From IMG/VR virus record IMGVR_UViG_3300035517_000173, positions 4,346 to 68,345 of that record: a DNA stretch of 64,000 nucleotides, one strand, 5' to 3'. The DNA is from a virus (taxonomy: Duplodnaviria > Caudoviricetes). Below the pieces are notes generated by a model that saw only the letters and a list, made by a program, of their open reading frames with translations, did no database searches and was not told where the DNA came from. The position numbers and the translations under genes are program-made. This document shows, in pieces, positions 2,522 through 64,000 of this stretch (the stretch's first letter is position 1; each line of letters opens with the position of its first letter).

Positions 2522-5500
2522 TTACAAGCAGAACGCAGGGCAGATACCATAGGTTTTATTCGGTACGGTAGTTACCGCCGTACCAGAAGTACTTACATAA
2601 TAAACATACGACCGACCCGATAAATATCCTTGTGACCACCATGCTACGGCACTTCCTGTACTTGTAGCATTACCGGCGTACTTAATTCGATTACTGCTTG
2701 TGTTATAATAGGCATAGCACGAACTACCAAAAATATCAATGTAATCTGCGATAAAACAATAATCAGAAACACTAGTGGTATCCATATATGGGGTCCAAGT
2801 CACTGGTCTAACCAAACCTTTAAGATAGCTCGGTAGTGCTGATTTAAATACGTTATTACACCAAGTGCGTCTTTCGCTCGTTTCCCAATAAAGATTGTAT
2901 ACAGTAGTATTACCGCTAGTTGTACTATTCAAGGTCATATACCCAGTCTCGGCTGTTGTTCCATTAGATAATACATTTTTAAGCTGTACCGTGATAAGTG
3001 CTTTTGTCTTGCCACCATTCGCATCGGTCAGTGTATCTTTGTCAAAATCCAAGATAACCAACTGCTGTGTCTGCGCTACATGGGATTCTCCTACTCCAGT
3101 CGCTGACATCGCAGACAGTGATATGGTTCTTGCATCGCCCACACTCCATACGGACTTCACGTCATCCAAAGTAATCATGCCGTTATAGTAGGCATTTATC
3201 ATTCTGGCAATCTGGCTGTCCGTTGCAGTTGACCATGGCACTAAGTATCCGCTAAATATATCCACGCTCGTAAGCACTGTTGAGCCAGATTTTAGGCTTA
3301 ATGTACTGCCATCCAGTGACATTGTGGTTGCGTAATTACTGTGGGTATGTGATGACTTCGCCGCACCTATGTTGTCTGGGGTACAGTATTCCTTGTAGTT
3401 TGTTTCATCTAATAATCTAGACCAGCTATACCAATCATCACCAACATCTCTTAATGCACGATACCACATTCCACCGCCAGCTTTATCCCAACGGACATCT
3501 ATTTCTGCTGAGCCTGTATTACCCATACCAAACCCAATTACAGCACCATATGGTGTTGGTGCATTTGTTCCAGTATACGTTCTGTATGAATATACTCCTC
3601 TATATAAAGTATTTCTTCCTGTTAATGGGTCAGCAGTACCTATTGGAGATATATGGTCGATTATATCACCGTAGTTCCCCTCGTCTAACACTCGTTTCCA
3701 GGATACCCATGTGCCGTTATTTCTTCCTCTAACTGCAATCGAACCAGACCGATAATCTCCATATATCATGTGTGCCCATGATGAAGAATAAACTTGCTTG
3801 TAAAGAGCACCATCCGTGATATCTGTTGTCAGTGCAGTACCAGTATACCCTTGTACATAGCCAATGGCATTAGCGGTCAAAGTATCCTGCCCTACATTTG
3901 CCGTAGATGTATTAGTAAAATATGAAAGACCAGATGCTGTATCTGCCACAGCTACTCTACCGTTCAGCGTACTAGTGAGATATCCAGTTGGTAATTCCGT
4001 TACATCTTCATTCTCCCAAGTCCATGATATACTGTTATATGCCTTAGAACCGAATGTAAAATCTGTGATAGTAATATCATCATATGTACCCTGTTTCTTA
4101 ACATAAAGTGTCCATGTACCTGTGTCAGATTTGTAATAGTATAGAGGCCATCCGTTTACTAACCAGTGATAACATCCAGCCACCGAAGGGTCTGTACTAG
4201 TATTTCCTGCAAATATTATGCTATAATTAATTTTTAAGCCAATACCTCTATGGGTCACAGCAAACATGATTGGTCTGTCTGCATAACTGCCTGTGATTTT
4301 CAGCGTAGCTATTTTCTTATAATAGCCATCGGTGTAATTGGTATATCCAAATTCTTTATTGACGATATCCTTATTCATGTAAATTCTGCCAGACACGTAT
4401 CCACCAGATAACGGCAAATATGTACTTGCGATGTTATTTCCATTGCCATCTTGCGTTGCTTTGGTTGCTGTGGCGACACTATCACTCGCCGTAATATATC
4501 CACTGTCATTTGTCAATGCAGACACCTTTGTCGGTATATCATCCGTAACAGCAATAGTCCCCGACTTGCTAGGAAGTGTAAGCTGATTTTTATTATACGT
4601 AGTTTCATTACAAATACTTTGACAATTTAAAATCCTGTGAATGTATCCATAATGCCATTTGTACGACGCTGACCCAAAGTCTATGTTACTAGATGTTTTA
4701 GGTGCTAACGCACCAGTAATTGAACTTGAACCCGACAAGGGTATAGCACCAACATTGTCACACGTGATGTTCACATTCCCCCTGCGATAGCTTGTCTCTG
4801 AATCTCCCTTTACTCCTGTCACTGGCGTTCCTGCAAGGCAATCCCAGTATCCGTCTGCCGTATAATAGACGTTCGTTCCCATCGGGTATTCGATACCGCC
4901 GCCATCTTTAAAATTGTCATCCGATGTGAAATCATCCGATATGTTATACATATAACCCGAAACTTTAGGAGACGTGTTCAGCTCGGCATAAGTTATCGTA
5001 CCCATAGGTAGAAGTGTTCCATTTAGCCCCTCTGATATACTTTTGGTCTGCTCATAATATTTCTTTGCGTCCTCGGAATATCCCTTTGATTCTGTGACGG
5101 CGGTATCCAGGTCGGTTGCATATCCGCTTGCACTTTCTGCGGATTGCAGTGCTTCTGATGCTTTCGCTGTTGCTGTATTAGCGGAATTGGATGCGCTTTC
5201 TGCACTTGCCTTAGCGTTTGTTTCGCTTGCACTTGCCGATTCCGCACTCTCACTTGCCGTAGATGCACTTTTTGACGCACTTGATTCACTCGCACTTGCC
5301 GATTCTGCGCTTGCTTTAGCGTTCGCTTCACTTGTTGATGCGCTTTCCGCTTTTTCCGTAGCAGTTTCTTCCGATTTCTTTGCCGATTCTGCGCTTGCAC
5401 TTGCGTTCTTCTCACTCGTCGATGCACTTTCTGCACTGGCTTTAGCGTTCGCTTCACTTGTTGATGCGCTTTCCGCTTTTTCCGTAGCAGTTTCTTCCGA

Positions 5501-59740: not shown

Positions 59741-60115
59741 CTACACCTCGCTTTCATATCTGCCATCTATAATCATTCTATCTATGACACATTCCAGTTC
59801 TTCGTATGATATAGACAACTTGATATTCTCCATATTTTCATTGTAATATTCGATTTTGTGTCCGTTTTGGCTGTGGTCTGCACCATGAATATAATTAGGT
59901 TTTTTAGTTGGAGAACCAAACCCGCCTACTCCATATTCCTTTTTCAAGAAATCTATTCTCTCTTTTTTATCTGTGTTAGAATGAAAAAACTCTGCAATTC
60001 TTTTCTTCCCATTTGTGAAACCACTACCACCATTTGCGTAATCTTCAATAGGATTATATTCTTGCGATTCGTTCTGTATAAACGAAAATATAGACATTTG
60101 TCCGTCCATTGTCAT
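59741..60115 (-). CDS. Hypothetical protein
   Basis: GQMSIF; GSGF..GK.RI motif. Confidence 0.7.
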   Translation of the reverse strand: MTMDGQMSIFSFIQNESQEYNPIEDYANGGSGFTNGKKRIAEFFHSNTDKKERIDFLKKEYGVGGFGSPTKKPNYIHGADHSQNGHKIEYYNENMENIKLSISYEELECVIDRMIIDGRYESEV

Positions 60116-62025
60116 ACCTCGCTAACTGTCAATTTTTCGTCATCTGACCGCCTAATCATTATTATCTGATTGTCCATTTCCGGCACTCTCCAACTGTCAA
60201 GGCTCTCGGTATCGTCCGTAATAATCGGAAGTGTTACATTGTTTGCCCTCTGAAACGCCCGACAAATATCTATCTCTGCTAAAATCTTTGCACCATGATT
60301 AAGGTTTCTGTCGTAACTTTCGCCATTTACTACTGGTTGGCAAATATCTTTCAATTCACCGTTTATCTGTGGCTCAAACATCTTAAACTGGATATACTCA
60401 AAATTGTTGTTCACGCTTTCTTCCAGTAATTCATTTTTCTTCCGGTCAAACTCTTTCAGATAGTTCAGAGTCCGTTCTTCATCTGCAATTTTCTGTGAGA
60501 TTTCCCTCTGTTCTTTCTGCAATTCTGCAATCCGTTCATCAATCGCAACATTACTTTCAGATTTTGCAATCTGCTTTTCGATTTCAAGCAACTGTGACCG
60601 CAAGTCGTTTTCTTCATCCTTTAGATTTTGTTTCGTTGTGAAGAAAGAATTACTCTCTTTCATGGCTTTTTCTTTTTCTGCAATTTGATTATTCAGTTCA
60701 ACAATGTCCGTTCTTTCTACAATGTCCATTAACGGTGGAAGTTTACAGAACTGGTTTCTAAGGTCTGCAATGGCTGTATTCAGCATTTCAAGGCTTTTCT
60801 TGTGTTCGGCAAGTTCCAGTTCAAGTGTGCGTAATGTTTCCTGCTCAACCTCAATTTCAGATTTCAAACGATTTCCGCTTTCTTCAATGCTTTTCAATTT
60901 TTCTTCTCTATGGCTTTCAAATTCTGCCCTTAATTCGTCCTTTTTCTCACTAGGGTATTCTTGCCCGCAATACTGACAAATAAGGCTATTTTCGTCAAAT
61001 TCAAGGTCTTGCGTGTCTTTGTACTTCTCACGCAATCTCTCAACATCTATCCGATTTTCTTTGATTTCCCGCTTTACATAAATAATATCTTTTTCTGTGT
61101 CTTTAATCGTTCTATTGGTTTTATCTGCAAGGAATCTCTTTTCTGATAGCTTGTTCTCAATCTCTAACCTATACTTAGAATTTTCCTCATTCGCCTGTCT
61201 GATAAGGTCATTTACTTGAAACTTCAACTCCAGTATTCCGTCACTTGCCTTGTCGATTTCTTCCATCTGCTTAGATAAGTCATCCTGCTTTGCCTTATTC
61301 TCTTTCAACTGCTCCTTTATGGCATTTCTGCTCAATTCCAGTTCGGCAACATCAATGTCAATCTTATGTGTTTCAAGTTCCTTAATTGCTGAAATCTTCT
61401 CATCTCTTTGCTGTTCCAATCCGACAATATTTCTTGCTTTGCTGCCGTGAATTTTATCGTTGCAGCTTTGCTTGATTTCTTTTACACTTCCAACTTGAAG
61501 TAATGCTCTGATTGGCTCAAATTCAGAAAACATATCAACAATTTGTACGTTCGTGAATTTTCCAAATGTATTCTCTAACAGTTCTCTGCGTTTGGAAGTG
61601 TCCATCCGCAAGAAAGAATAAGGATTCACGCATAAATCGCTAGGAATGATTTCTGAAACATATTTCGCATATTCTCCGCTTTGTTTTGGAATATCTGACA
61701 CGTAACAATCCGTCACATTTCCAGTGATTTCTCCCTTTTTGTTGCGTTTCTGATAGTGTGACTTTTTGAGTGTTATGCCGCTGTCAAGTGCCAGTTCAAC
61801 CTCTGTCACAACATCATCAATGTCTTTACCCTCACTGTCATGCGGTCTTATGCCTGTAATTTCCTTGCCGTTCTCATCCTTAAGATTTAATATCCAGTAG
61901 ATAGCACGTTTAATTGTGGATTTTCCAACTTCATTACATCCGCTTATGGATGTAATATTATATAAGTCTGTCTCAAAATTATTATGCTTGCAGAAATTCC
62001 GTAAACGAATGTGTGTAAATTTCAT
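60112..62025 (-). CDS. SMC/SbcC-like AAA ATPase
   Basis: GCNEVGKST Walker A, long coiled coil, LNHG signature, IITDDTE. Confidence 0.88.
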   Translation of the reverse strand: MKFTHIRLRNFCKHNNFETDLYNITSISGCNEVGKSTIKRAIYWILNLKDENGKEITGIRPHDSEGKDIDDVVTEVELALDSGITLKKSHYQKRNKKGEITGNVTDCYVSDIPKQSGEYAKYVSEIIPSDLCVNPYSFLRMDTSKRRELLENTFGKFTNVQIVDMFSEFEPIRALLQVGSVKEIKQSCNDKIHGSKARNIVGLEQQRDEKISAIKELETHKIDIDVAELELSRNAIKEQLKENKAKQDDLSKQMEEIDKASDGILELKFQVNDLIRQANEENSKYRLEIENKLSEKRFLADKTNRTIKDTEKDIIYVKREIKENRIDVERLREKYKDTQDLEFDENSLICQYCGQEYPSEKKDELRAEFESHREEKLKSIEESGNRLKSEIEVEQETLRTLELELAEHKKSLEMLNTAIADLRNQFCKLPPLMDIVERTDIVELNNQIAEKEKAMKESNSFFTTKQNLKDEENDLRSQLLEIEKQIAKSESNVAIDERIAELQKEQREISQKIADEERTLNYLKEFDRKKNELLEESVNNNFEYIQFKMFEPQINGELKDICQPVVNGESYDRNLNHGAKILAEIDICRAFQRANNVTLPIITDDTESLDSWRVPEMDNQIIMIRRSDDEKLTVSEV

Positions 62026-62028
62026 ATA

Positions 62029-62661
62029 TTATTCCTCTCCTTTCACATCTCCGACATGGTATCTCCCATAACCGCTTGACCTACCGCTGCCGATTCCACT
62101 TCCAAATCCTGCAATATTGATAATGTTCAAAATCTGTTCTGCACTATATACATTTTCCATATAGGAAATTGTAAACGTAGCACTCCAACCACTAAAACGA
62201 TTAAGACGTGCTAATACTGGACTTCCCTTTTTAGGCGATATAAGTTTTTCATCAATAAAATGTTCTGAAAACACAATAGGCACTAAATCACCAACAATAT
62301 TTACATTTAAGTCAAATTTTGTCTTGTACTTATCAATCCCACTTCTAACGACCGAATCTCCAAATGATTTTTTTAGTCCAAACCCAGTAATGCAAGGTGC
62401 GTTTTCCTTTAATGCCTTTACTAGTCCTTTTTCTGAAAAATCTTTTGGTTTCCCATTTTTCCAGTGCATGGAAGTAATAATGCACTCCCATTCATTCGGT
62501 TTCTCATTATCTTTTGCCTTATCTTTTCTTTGGTTAATAAGTTGCCTTGCTGTAACATCGTTCATTTTGTTCAGCACCAAATCGCTATCTCCGACGATTG
62601 TTACCTCCATGTACTTTGTTGCAAACGGTTTCATTTCGATTGTGTTTGTAGTTCCTTTCAT
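62029..62661 (-). CDS. RAMP/Cas7-like RNA-binding protein (Vipr-like)
   Basis: N-terminal beta strand EVTIVGDSDLVLNK; W.A...ISY strand; C-terminal Gly loop AGFGSGIGSGRSSGYGRY; directly downstream of the pentamer array. Confidence 0.75.
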   Translation of the reverse strand: MKGTTNTIEMKPFATKYMEVTIVGDSDLVLNKMNDVTARQLINQRKDKAKDNEKPNEWECIITSMHWKNGKPKDFSEKGLVKALKENAPCITGFGLKKSFGDSVVRSGIDKYKTKFDLNVNIVGDLVPIVFSEHFIDEKLISPKKGSPVLARLNRFSGWSATFTISYMENVYSAEQILNIINIAGFGSGIGSGRSSGYGRYHVGDVKGEE

Positions 62662-62700
62662 TTTTAATTCCCCCTTAAACTTAAATTATTTTATTTCTAC

Positions 62701-63185
62701 CTCTACAACCTTGTAAGTGACAATAACAAATACAATATGCTGTCCTAGACTGTGATTTCCTGTCCTGTTATGTCCTTTAATACGCTATAGTGTTCTATGC
62801 AAGTGGCTATTGCCACTTATAAGATTGTAGAGAATAGTGTACTGTATTATGGTATGGTGTACTGTCGTGTTGTTTTGTTTTAATACGCTAAATTGATGTG
62901 TTTTGATTTGTTATCTGCCTTGATAGGCATTGGGTTAGCCTTAAAACTTTACAAGTATAGTTTATTGTTCTGTTTTGTCATGTGATGTACTGTACTGTTT
63001 TGCAGTGTTCTTGTTAGAATTAAAGCCAACCAAATACCTACCAAATTGCCCCATAATTCGTGAGTAAAACATATCCAAAGTAAAGATGTATTATAATGTT
63101 CTTTGCTGTTTTGTTATAATCTGTGATTTCATGTCCTGTTCTTTCCTGTTTTTATAGATGGTTTTACCCACCAACTATAAGGCAA
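62701..63185 (-). ncRNA. Array of four guide-like RNA units of NN-(ACA) pentamers, three enclosed by 24-28-bp stems
   Basis: Units at 63087-63151, 62956-63015, 62833-62913, 62731-62800; stems 63158-85/63046-72, 63020-43/62921-44, 62806-32/62701-27; 11 G-U pairs on the minus strand versus 1 A-C. Confidence 0.85.
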
Positions 63186-63203
63186 CTAGCAGATATTAAA
63201 TTT

Positions 63204-63632
63204 TCAAAGTGCGTCTATCTCTGCAAAAATACTCTCTAATTCAGTTAGCGTGTGATACCTCTTTTTGAAAGACTGCAATTCCAGTTTTGCCCTTTTCAAT
63301 AAACTTTGGTATTCATCTTCGTTCTTTAAAATCATTTTCACTGGTTGATATACGCTTTTTTGCGTTGTAATCTGAAAAGTTCTTATTGGTTCGTTATCTT
63401 TTTCAACTGGGGTAAATACAAACATTCGTATCATTTCTCTTGCTTGCAGATTTCTATATTTCTCCCCGGCTACAGTGTCATTCCACTCAAAATCATTGTG
63501 TATGACCGAATTTTCGTTCCTTGCCAAATCCACAACATTCTGTGGCGTGATATTTTCTAGTTTAGCTATTTCCTCATAGGCTTTTTGTGCGTCAGCCTTA
63601 TATTTTGGAATTTTCCATGATATTTTCTCCAT
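63204..63632 (-). CDS. Accessory protein immediately upstream of the pentamer array
   Basis: ITPQNVVDLARNENSVIHNDFEWNDTVAGEKYR..QAR motif; helical. Confidence 0.8.
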   Translation of the reverse strand: MEKISWKIPKYKADAQKAYEEIAKLENITPQNVVDLARNENSVIHNDFEWNDTVAGEKYRNLQAREMIRMFVFTPVEKDNEPIRTFQITTQKSVYQPVKMILKNEDEYQSLLKRAKLELQSFKKRYHTLTELESIFAEIDAL

Positions 63633-63635
63633 TTG

Positions 63636-63998
63636 CTAACACCTCGATTCTTCTAATTCCTTAACTTCTCCATTTTCGATAACATACCAAGTGTTTTCTT
63701 TGATGGTTTCTCCGTCTACTTGTACCATCTTCGCACCTTTCAATGTCCATGAATCAGGTTTCCAGTATTCAGATTCGTCACCTTCCCAATCTGCAAATAC
63801 AAGATGTGAACCTTTAACGCCTTTGGCTTTGGACTTGTAACCCCATGCAATAGCAACCGATTCTTTATCTTTTGCAGATGAAGCACCCTTGTAACCAGTG
63901 GCAGATGAAGCACCACAGTTACCAGTGGCAGATGAAGCACCCTTGTAACCAGTGGCAGATGAAGCACCCTTGTAACCAGTGGCAGATGAAGCACCCTT
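63636..63998 (-). CDS. Gly/Ala/Ser repeat protein (partial, runs off the window)
   Basis: True frame reads (GASSATGYK)n...AIAWGYKSKAKG...VDGETIKENTWY; the track ORF 63740-63994 is the wrong frame. Confidence 0.8.
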   Translation of the reverse strand, partial: KGASSATGYKGASSATGYKGASSATGNCGASSATGYKGASSAKDKESVAIAWGYKSKAKGVKGSHLVFADWEGDESEYWKPDSWTLKGAKMVQVDGETIKENTWYVIENGEVKELEESRC

Positions 63999-64000
63999 GT
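63874..64000. repeat. 27-bp tandem repeat (at least 4.7 copies)
   Basis: GCAGATGAAGCACCCTTGTAACCAGTG units. Confidence 0.95.

Follow-up and report, generated by a model that had tools for sequence, protein, structure and literature searches.

A probable VIPR locus with A-Y-A pentamer guides in a temperate phage of Lachnospiraceae and its candidate targets in genes of other phages

The window analyzed here is a 64,000-nt stretch of DNA (positions 4,346 to 68,345 of the IMG/VR virus record IMGVR_UViG_3300035517_000173), and the subject is a three-part locus at 62029-63632, in which a 142-aa open reading frame (ORF), an ORF-free gap holding tracts of pentamers and a 210-aa ORF follow one another on the - strand. 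We consider it likely, at a probability of roughly 85%, that the phage is a complete temperate phage of Lachnospiraceae with Blautia prophages as its relatives and that the locus is a VIPR (Viral Interference Programmable Repeat) system. A broader proposal, to which we give somewhat better than even odds, is that a large gut-phage clade of VIPR has fully re-coded its protein-RNA handle, so that a sense A-Y-A would be read by N31 and S192-G193-R194 instead of H17 and D177-W178-R179 while the code that skips one nucleotide is kept. The same proposal holds that sister scaffolds (TCA, ATT, xCA) track the G-loop of the protein, that VIPR would be a set of mutually orthogonal guide systems, and that stem-closed guide loops would address those codons in rivals' replication genes that are least free to mutate (polymerase motifs A and B).

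VIPR was described in 2026 as a minimal phage RAMP protein combined with a vap gene and RNAs (vrRNAs) of 9-16 GGY/NN pentamers; only the dinucleotides NN pair with double-stranded DNA, one target base is skipped between them, and competing mobile elements are repressed (bioRxiv 10.64898/2026.04.26.720920; 10.64898/2026.04.26.720927). Some 667 systems and seven types have been published, together with accessory genes named vap1-6. A first-pass annotation made from the letters of the window had given as background a RAMP protein, GGY/NN RNAs and a gapped code for double-stranded DNA, in agreement with these preprints. It had also described a 142-aa gene, an array and a 210-aa gene in one orientation; all three were found at the coordinates it gave, on the - strand. 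Its overall call of a VIPR-like locus is supported by Vipr homology, by the arrays and by target matches at skip 1, each of which is taken up below.

The Vipr homologue and the four guide tracts

The 210-aa protein (vipr, 62029-62661, - strand) is a genuine Vipr homologue with a minimal, Cas7-like RAMP fold, because a profile of 68 diverse homologues matches PDB entry 36pp, "SUSP1 Vipr protein", at E 2.6e-14 over profile positions 20-210 (nearly the full length), and because a confident AlphaFold2 (AF2) model (pLDDT 96.4) finds Cmr4, Csm3 and type VII Cas7 as its best solved matches in Foldseek (E 5e-7, probability 1.0). The single-sequence PDB search found 36pp weakly, at the G-loop (E 0.89), and the Pfam RAMPs family matches below threshold (E 0.019). 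The architecture consists of an RRM core, a helical insertion, a beta-hairpin thumb and the G-loop, GFGSGIGSGRSSGYG (residues 185-200), with a C-terminus that reads ...GFGSGIGSGRSSGYGRYHV. The RAMP/Cas7-like assignment of the first-pass annotation is thus borne out by structure prediction and profile search, and one RAMP gene is present.

Between the accessory gene and vipr lies the 542-nt ORF-free gap (62662-63203, - strand), which holds 35 ACA triplets (TGT on the + strand). Among pairs of ACA no more than 30 nt apart, 70 of 91 are separated by a multiple of 5, whereas 1000 shuffles gave 2.3 such pairs on average and never more than 11. The gap had been described as one 485-nt array of strict 5-nt periodicity; the periodicity lies far above chance, but it comes from four tracts of 9-14 NN-A(C/T)A pentamers (63151-63087, 63015-62956, 62882-62838 and 62800-62731), each in its own phase and with stem-forming sequence between. 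The triplet is ACA in 27 of 46 units in the window, the others being AAA, ATA, GTA, CTA, TTA and GCA. The expectation that it always ends in A holds for guide 4, where the last A is invariant in all 14 units; in the wider logo an A there is required by the detector.

Three of the four tracts are loops closed by complementary arms, with stems of 25-45 bp. In unit 1 (63033-63197, - strand) a 5' arm (63197-63155) and a 3' arm (63077-63033) flank 13 pentamers (63151-63087) with the NN series aa gg ga gg tg tc ga ta aa gc ga tt at; the two arms are complementary along some 45 positions, with 9 G·U and 1 A·C as read on the - strand, and the stem is present in the minimum free energy fold. Unit 2 (62920-63044, - strand) carries 12 pentamers (63015-62956; NN aa ga ct aa gt gt tc tg aa ga at ct) between arms at 63044-63020 (5') and 62944-62920 (3') that form 20 Watson-Crick and 4 G·U pairs with 0 A·C. 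In unit 4 (62701-62832, - strand) the loop closed by a 27-bp stem (3 G·U, 1 A·C; 5' arm 62832-62806, 3' arm 62727-62701) is almost exactly the guide, 14 pentamers at 62800-62731 with NN gc ga ct gc tt gg ta gg gg tc gt gg gc tt. Unit 3 (62838-62882, - strand), located by the tract detector between the hairpins of units 2 and 4, has 9 pentamers (NN ta ca ca cg gt cc cc at gt) and no stem of its own, its arm alignment scoring only 10. The earlier description of the guides as stem-bracketed therefore fits units 1, 2 and 4 and fails for unit 3. Rfam recognizes nothing in the gap or in 8 related loci, and no hammerhead was found.

As a separate observation, units 3 and 4 share a 12-mer, TAGCGTATTAAA, at their 5' side (62882-62868 and 62790-62776), in pentamer phases one base apart. 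In unit 4 the 12-mer lies within the guide that matches a target, and the sharing may be a trace of duplication between units.

Predicted targets in polymerase and PC4-like genes

Targets were sought with the published skip of one nucleotide, a single wildcard base separating successive NNs. For guide 4, a seed of 8 units matched at least 113 contigs in IMG/VR, and the counts that follow are among the matches listed. All 113 are in frame and encode GYGGSVGA, and the five unseeded upstream units match at 8-10 of 10 bases in 105 of them. Over its 14 units, guide 4 reads as codon positions 1-2 of A-E-L-A-L-G-Y-G-G-S-V-G-A-L, with the skipped base at the wobble position; the match extends to 26-28 of 28 bases in codon phase and recurs, at skip 1 only, in more than 100 homologous genes. 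These genes encode family-A DNA polymerases (PF00476, E 1e-21 to 1e-24). The site, AELALGYGGSVGAL, is presumably polymerase motif B, with the O-helix RQKGKIAELALGYGGSVGAL, to judge by the spacing R-x3-K-x7-Y-G.

The specificity of the match was examined in several ways. In 1.0 Mb of the listed hit loci, guide 4 has 107 sites of at least 80% match at skip 1 and 0 at skip 0, 2 or 3. A reversed, composition-matched control pattern gave 27 matches in IMG/VR. Guide 4 also matches 19 of 151 Lachnospiraceae genomes at no more than 3 mismatches in 26 bases, with 12 places that have only 1 mismatch, while the reversed control matches 0. Two guides of other phages point to the same polymerase gene, again within the hit loci listed. 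Guide L010_2, from a related phage, reads (R)QKGKIAELAL of motif B, 18 nt upstream, with 103 sites at skip 1 vs 0-1 at other skips; guide L021_3, from a related prophage, reads AIEARVIA of motif A, 177 nt upstream, with 114 sites vs 5-10.

The evidence for guide 2 is good but weaker than that for guide 4. As codon positions 1-2, its first 10 units read KELNVVSWN(D/E), and a perfect 20/20 match lies in a 74-aa ORF of the PC4 family (L213; PF02229, E 3e-10) that reads KELNVVSWND. Matches of 19/20 occur in 7 homologous small viral ORFs and, with codon 5 left free, 7 of 26 IMG/VR matches fall in small ORFs whose sequence is GW.KELNxVSWNDxxPKYDIRxW. In metagenomes all 10 units together match exactly 4 times, once in the 74-aa ORF just named, and an exact 9-unit seed has 0 matches in IMG/VR. 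Because the matches are in frame within one gene family, we regard a PC4/YdbC-like gene, at its KELNVVSWND motif, as the candidate target of guide 2. Searches with guide 1 gave 4 and 21 incoherent IMG/VR matches for two 8-unit seeds, whose extensions agree at only 0-4 of 10 bases, and hits in 0 of 401 Lachnospiraceae genomes at no more than 3 mismatches; an 8-unit seed of guide 3 gave 10 incoherent IMG/VR matches, which is chance level.

The phage itself has no family-A polymerase in its genome. When 30 guides were compared with this genome and 17 related loci at skips 0-3, only trivial matches to their own arrays appeared, at skip 3. In the Blautia metagenome-assembled genome (MAG) G001 (loci L021 and L217), one of the 19 Lachnospiraceae genomes matched by guide 4, a VIPR prophage and a family-A polymerase gene on another contig occur together; this resident polA is matched at 14/16 by guide L021_3 of the genome's own prophage and at 25/26 by guide 4 of the window. 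G001 may represent a phage-phage conflict within one genome, subject to the uncertainty of MAG binning.

As judged from sequence, the predicted target matches are shown to be specific to the skip-1 rule and to lie, in codon phase, in genes of rival phages. The suggestion in the first-pass annotation that the guides are aimed at competing phages is accordingly favored for guides 2 and 4, which match genes of other phages, and has no match behind it for guides 1 and 3. As an aside, in the four guides with an assigned target (WIN_2, WIN_4, L010_2 and L021_3) the NNs equal the coding strand of the target, so that the template strand would be the pairing partner of a sense-strand vrRNA; four out of four is too few to establish a bias.

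These matches also bear on an explanation in which the repeats are not guides at all. The repeat region could instead serve the early operon itself, as a structured leader or as an element of cis-regulation or processing, such as CA-rich translation enhancers or RNase III sites, with the RAMP-like protein regulating the phage's own transcripts and the target matches coincidental. The long stems are possible RNase III sites controlling vipr or vap expression, and two of the four tracts lack a target. Coincidence does not, however, account for a guide that agrees with more than 100 homologous genes at 26-28 of 28 bases, in codon register and at no skip other than 1, nor for two independent guides of other phages that match the same polymerase gene. 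The NNs are, in addition, hypervariable between related phages whose arms are conserved. We regard this explanation as very improbable.

Strand of the RNAs and variation of the scaffold

The reading of the locus as a VIPR system with A-Y-A guides depends on the strand from which the RNAs are made. At the non-Watson-Crick positions of the 20-45 bp stems in 11 loci, the gene strand gives 72 G·U vs 15 A·C (binomial p 4e-10), with an excess of G·U in 10 of the 11 loci and 16 vs 2 in the window alone. Since random transitions in a stem would give G·U and A·C equally, the 72:15 ratio argues for selection on an RNA of the gene strand. Folding of the gap is more favorable on the - strand (-129.3 kcal/mol, z -6.8) than on the + strand (-116.2 kcal/mol, z -3.1), and in a SUSP1-type reference locus (phage Alf5) the GGYNN arrays lie on the gene strand. 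Taken together, the G·U bias, the fold z-scores and the reference arrays support RNAs on the gene (-) strand and a scaffold that reads A-Y-A (ACA) and not its complement UGU. The claims that the arrays are co-oriented with the genes and that the scaffold trinucleotide is ACA, differing from GGY, gain support from the same data. On the strand favored by the G·U bias, the triplets ACA, ATA and AAA fall outside GGY and outside its published relatives NNNGG, YNNNG and NNNNG (bioRxiv 10.64898/2026.04.26.720920; 10.64898/2026.04.26.720927).

The opposite strand was favored at first, on the position of the 12-mer shared by units 3 and 4, which on the + strand comes after the tract and could be a 3' tail, and on the likeness of TGTNN to the YNNNG repeats of the earlier VIPR paper; it was rejected on the G·U bias and the fold z-scores. 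In that reading the locus is the same VIPR system with guide RNAs transcribed from the + strand, antisense to vap and vipr, and the scaffold is U-G-U/NN, which departs only mildly from GGY in that G2 and Y3 are retained. The Evo-PIN intergenic atlas of October 2026 describes GAC/NN, CAC/NN, WGT/NN and TGH/NN arrays beside Vipr-like folds in 21 clusters (bioRxiv 10.64898/2026.10.21.760802), and WGT/NN and TGH/NN both include TGT/NN, the reverse complement of NN/ACA. The SUSP1 contact to Y3, R179, is retained as R194, and a search of double-stranded DNA targets is blind to the guide strand. Nonetheless, the stem transitions give 15 G·U on the + strand vs 72 on the gene strand, the stability of the fold exceeds expectation twice as strongly on the - strand, the SUSP1-type reference arrays are gene-sense, and the flanking genes are all on the - strand. 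No + strand promoter or terminator stands out, the promoter and terminator scan being at shuffle level and uninformative. The contact to G2 (W178) and those to G1 (H17 and D177) are all replaced, which would be unexpected if G2 were kept. A + strand origin of the guides is in our judgment unlikely.

The module and its arrays were compared across relatives. The Vipr family comprises 2,052 clusters at 90% identity and 507 representatives at 50%, and 21 related loci were examined (17 from IMG/VR and 4 genome loci, from Blautia and other gut MAGs). NN-ACA arrays lie between the vap homologue and vipr in 17 of the 21, with up to 5 arrays per locus and up to 18 units per array. In the synteny survey of homologues that the first-pass annotation had called for, arrays directly upstream of vipr were the rule, with loci L002-L004 and L011 holding only scattered, degenerate ACA units. 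Over 324 units the information content at the two N positions is 0.08-0.09 bits, and C (71%) and T (19%) prevail at position 4; positions 3 and 5 are set to A by the detector, so conservation there is partly built in. Between related phages the arms are conserved and the NNs completely different. Two observations stand beside these: L021:1990-2100 holds an extra stem-bracketed NN-ACA array upstream of the vap-like gene, besides those between vap and vipr, and at L010:3650-4061, in a related phage, vipr is followed immediately by three tRNA genes on its own strand.

In SUSP1 Vipr, H17 and D177 are reported to read G1, W178 to read G2 and R179 to contact Y3 (bioRxiv 10.64898/2026.04.26.720920; 10.64898/2026.04.26.720927). 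By alignment, H17 corresponds to N31, D177 to S192 and W178 to G193 in the window's protein, and R179 is kept as R194. G-loops of the family split into two groups, D/E-W-R-P-like and S-G-R-like. Scaffolds read on the gene strand differ accordingly between loci: GGC accompanies GEGRP (L029), xGT accompanies GEWRI (L028), and GGT accompanies a SUSP1-type loop (L018). The present clade has GIGSGR with AYA, and other Vipr clades combine GIGSSR with TCA (L023 and L024, arrays ~2090-2430), GIHTQR with ATT (L025, arrays 2380-2460 and 3270-3450), GIGTCRP with TCA or CAA (L026, arrays 435-815) and GIGSHKP with AnA (L030, array 1991-2045). This small sample suggests that G-loop and scaffold co-vary across clades.

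Several points weigh against this picture. The residues that contact bases in SUSP1 Vipr are replaced, and the RNA-binding mode is therefore an extrapolation. The canonical GGY scaffold is absent, and no 3' tail common to the tracts, like the invariant 3' tail/pseudoknot of characterized vrRNAs, was found; complementary arms stand at three of four tracts instead, and published architectures vary. The strand call, read from sequence, rests on G·U statistics and fold energies, and locus L010 has the opposite bias, with 1 G·U vs 4 A·C. No target was found for guides 1 and 3; for guide 2, 3 of the 4 exact metagenome matches are chance matches, and IMG/VR would by chance alone hold about two matches of 19/20. 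Lastly, the accessory protein has no recognizable fold and no BLASTP similarity to the gene that adjoins vipr in SUSP1-type loci (presumably vap1).

That accessory protein is encoded by the vap-like 142-aa gene (63204-63632, - strand). In 20 of the 21 related loci a homologue of it immediately precedes the arrays and vipr, and because this position is constant across loci, the 142-aa protein is suggested to belong to the system. The protein matches phrog_15946, a family of unknown function, and finds nothing significant among Pfam, NCBIfam and PADLOC models and nothing below E 0.25 in a profile search of the PDB. Its AF2 model (pLDDT 79) gave nothing below E 3 in Foldseek and a best Z of 3.8 VIA-wide. 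By analogy with vap1, we would guess that it helps target binding or silencing.

Directly downstream of vipr are the gene for a 637-aa SbcC/AAA_23-like ATPase (60112-62025, - strand; Pfam AAA_23/AAA_15, phrog_77 SbcC-like) and then a RecT gene. The ATPase adjoins the vap-array-vipr module, on either side, in 13 of the 21 related loci; an AAA_23 ATPase also adjoins the vipr of a distant clade (L025:1-1857; P0168, ~30% identity), and the window's protein matches the PADLOC models AriA and LmuB weakly (E 3e-11). The ATPase gene is of uncertain membership in the system and may be an additional accessory gene, not a component of a RecT recombination module. On the other side of the locus, a 27-nt tandem repeat (63874-64000; 4.7 copies, 92% match) encodes GASSATGYK repeats at the N-terminal side of an ORF at 63636-63998 (- strand) that continues past the contig end. 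Homologues of this ORF occur near vipr in the Blautia prophages L021 and L022.

Proposed mechanism and relation to known systems

We propose that an early operon on the - strand would transcribe vap, the four guide units and vipr. Each guide would be the run of 9-14 NN-A(C/T)A pentamers, presented in three of the four units as a large loop on a long, G·U-rich stem that is perhaps processed, for example by RNase III. By extension from the SUSP1 work, one Vipr protomer would bind each pentamer, sequestering A-Y-A and exposing NN, and filament assembly, R-loop triplex formation and transcriptional repression may proceed as in that system. The filament would read double-stranded DNA as NNxNNx..., which in coding DNA means codon positions 1-2 with the wobble ignored. 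Guide 4 would thereby address motif B of family-A polymerase genes and guide 2 the KELNVVSWND motif of PC4/YdbC-like genes, in both cases genes carried by other phages and prophages within this host family. Once bound, the replication genes of the rival would be silenced and, since the wobble base is not read, synonymous mutation would offer no escape. Aiming at codons of catalytic motifs would make such targeting broad and resistant to escape.

The closest known counterpart is the type II VIPR of Escherichia phage SUSP1 and the Pseudomonas fulva prophage, which likewise combines a Vipr RAMP of ~200 aa with a single small accessory gene and with intergenic RNAs in which each of the 9-16 pentamers joins a fixed triplet to a hypervariable NN. 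The resemblance extends to arrays on the gene strand, to an xNN code whose skip falls on the wobble position, to the targeting of competing mobile elements with no self-targeting, and to a protein homology that profile search makes visible in PDB 36pp. Unlike SUSP1, the scaffold here is A-(C/T)-A and not G-G-Y, with the G1 and G2 contacts replaced, and the guides are loops on G·U-rich stems where the SUSP1 tracts end in an invariant 3' tail/pseudoknot. The arrays here separate vipr from the accessory gene, which stands upstream and shows no sequence relation to the neighbor of vipr in the SUSP1-type locus. The hosts here are Lachnospiraceae, and the predicted targets are polymerase catalytic motifs and a PC4-like gene, whereas those of SUSP1 and P. 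fulva are a satellite recombinase or regulators of the lysis-lysogeny decision.

Comparison with class 1 CRISPR-Cas is also instructive. The Cas7 subunits Csm3, Cmr4 and type VII Cas7 share the RRM/RAMP fold, the G-rich loop and the thumb hairpin (Foldseek E 5e-7 to 1e-5, TM-score ~0.5) and, by homology, one protomer per short RNA register with periodic base flipping may be expected here as well. Unlike class 1 systems, the locus has no repeat-spacer array, no large or small subunits and no nuclease; its register is 5 nt and not 6, its guide is non-contiguous, and it is encoded by a phage. The virus record is a single contig of 68,345 nt with a completeness of 100% (CheckV), and no further pentamer tracts occur elsewhere in it. 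The absence of cas1/2 and of a CRISPR array noted in the first-pass annotation stands in part: Cas1 was not found in the complete 68.3-kb record, Cas2 was not searched for, and no CRISPR repeat-spacer units were seen, the repeats of the gap having a 5-nt period, in an array search that was not exhaustive.

The non-canonical arrays of the Evo-PIN atlas have in common with the present ones a 5-nt period, a non-GGY triplet and a Vipr-like neighbor. With TGT/NN included among its motifs, the clade studied here is probably among the atlas's 21 clusters, apparently read on the other strand. The atlas text, in its accessible part, gives motif logos and the structural likeness of neighbors without strand, architecture, targeting rule or targets; the present evidence puts the RNA on the opposite strand (ACA, not TGT), finds the skip-1 rule preserved and names targets. 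Targeting in codon periodicity had already been published for SUSP1 (bioRxiv 10.64898/2026.04.26.720920; 10.64898/2026.04.26.720927). VIPR itself, codon-phase targeting and the existence of non-GGY arrays are already known from the 2026 preprints; new here are the sense A-Y-A assignment, the stem-closed loops, the replaced contacts together with the covariation of the scaffold, the skip-1 code in this clade and the named targets. There is also a caution for the literature: TGT-like non-canonical arrays may have been read on the wrong strand.

VIPR has been known for a few months and was characterized only for GGY/NN guides in phages of Proteobacteria. Our data suggest that its gapped code with a skip of one nucleotide extends to a distant and abundant clade in gut Firmicutes, on a scaffold triplet without a base in common with GGY, and that guides can be presented as stem-closed loops, a different RNA architecture. 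The tracking of the scaffold with the G-loop and β1 residues suggests a code of protein-RNA recognition that can be tested and that could lead to orthogonal programmable silencers. Finally, the natural targets appear to be catalytic motifs of rival polymerases read at codon positions 1-2, so that in effect the target would be a protein motif.

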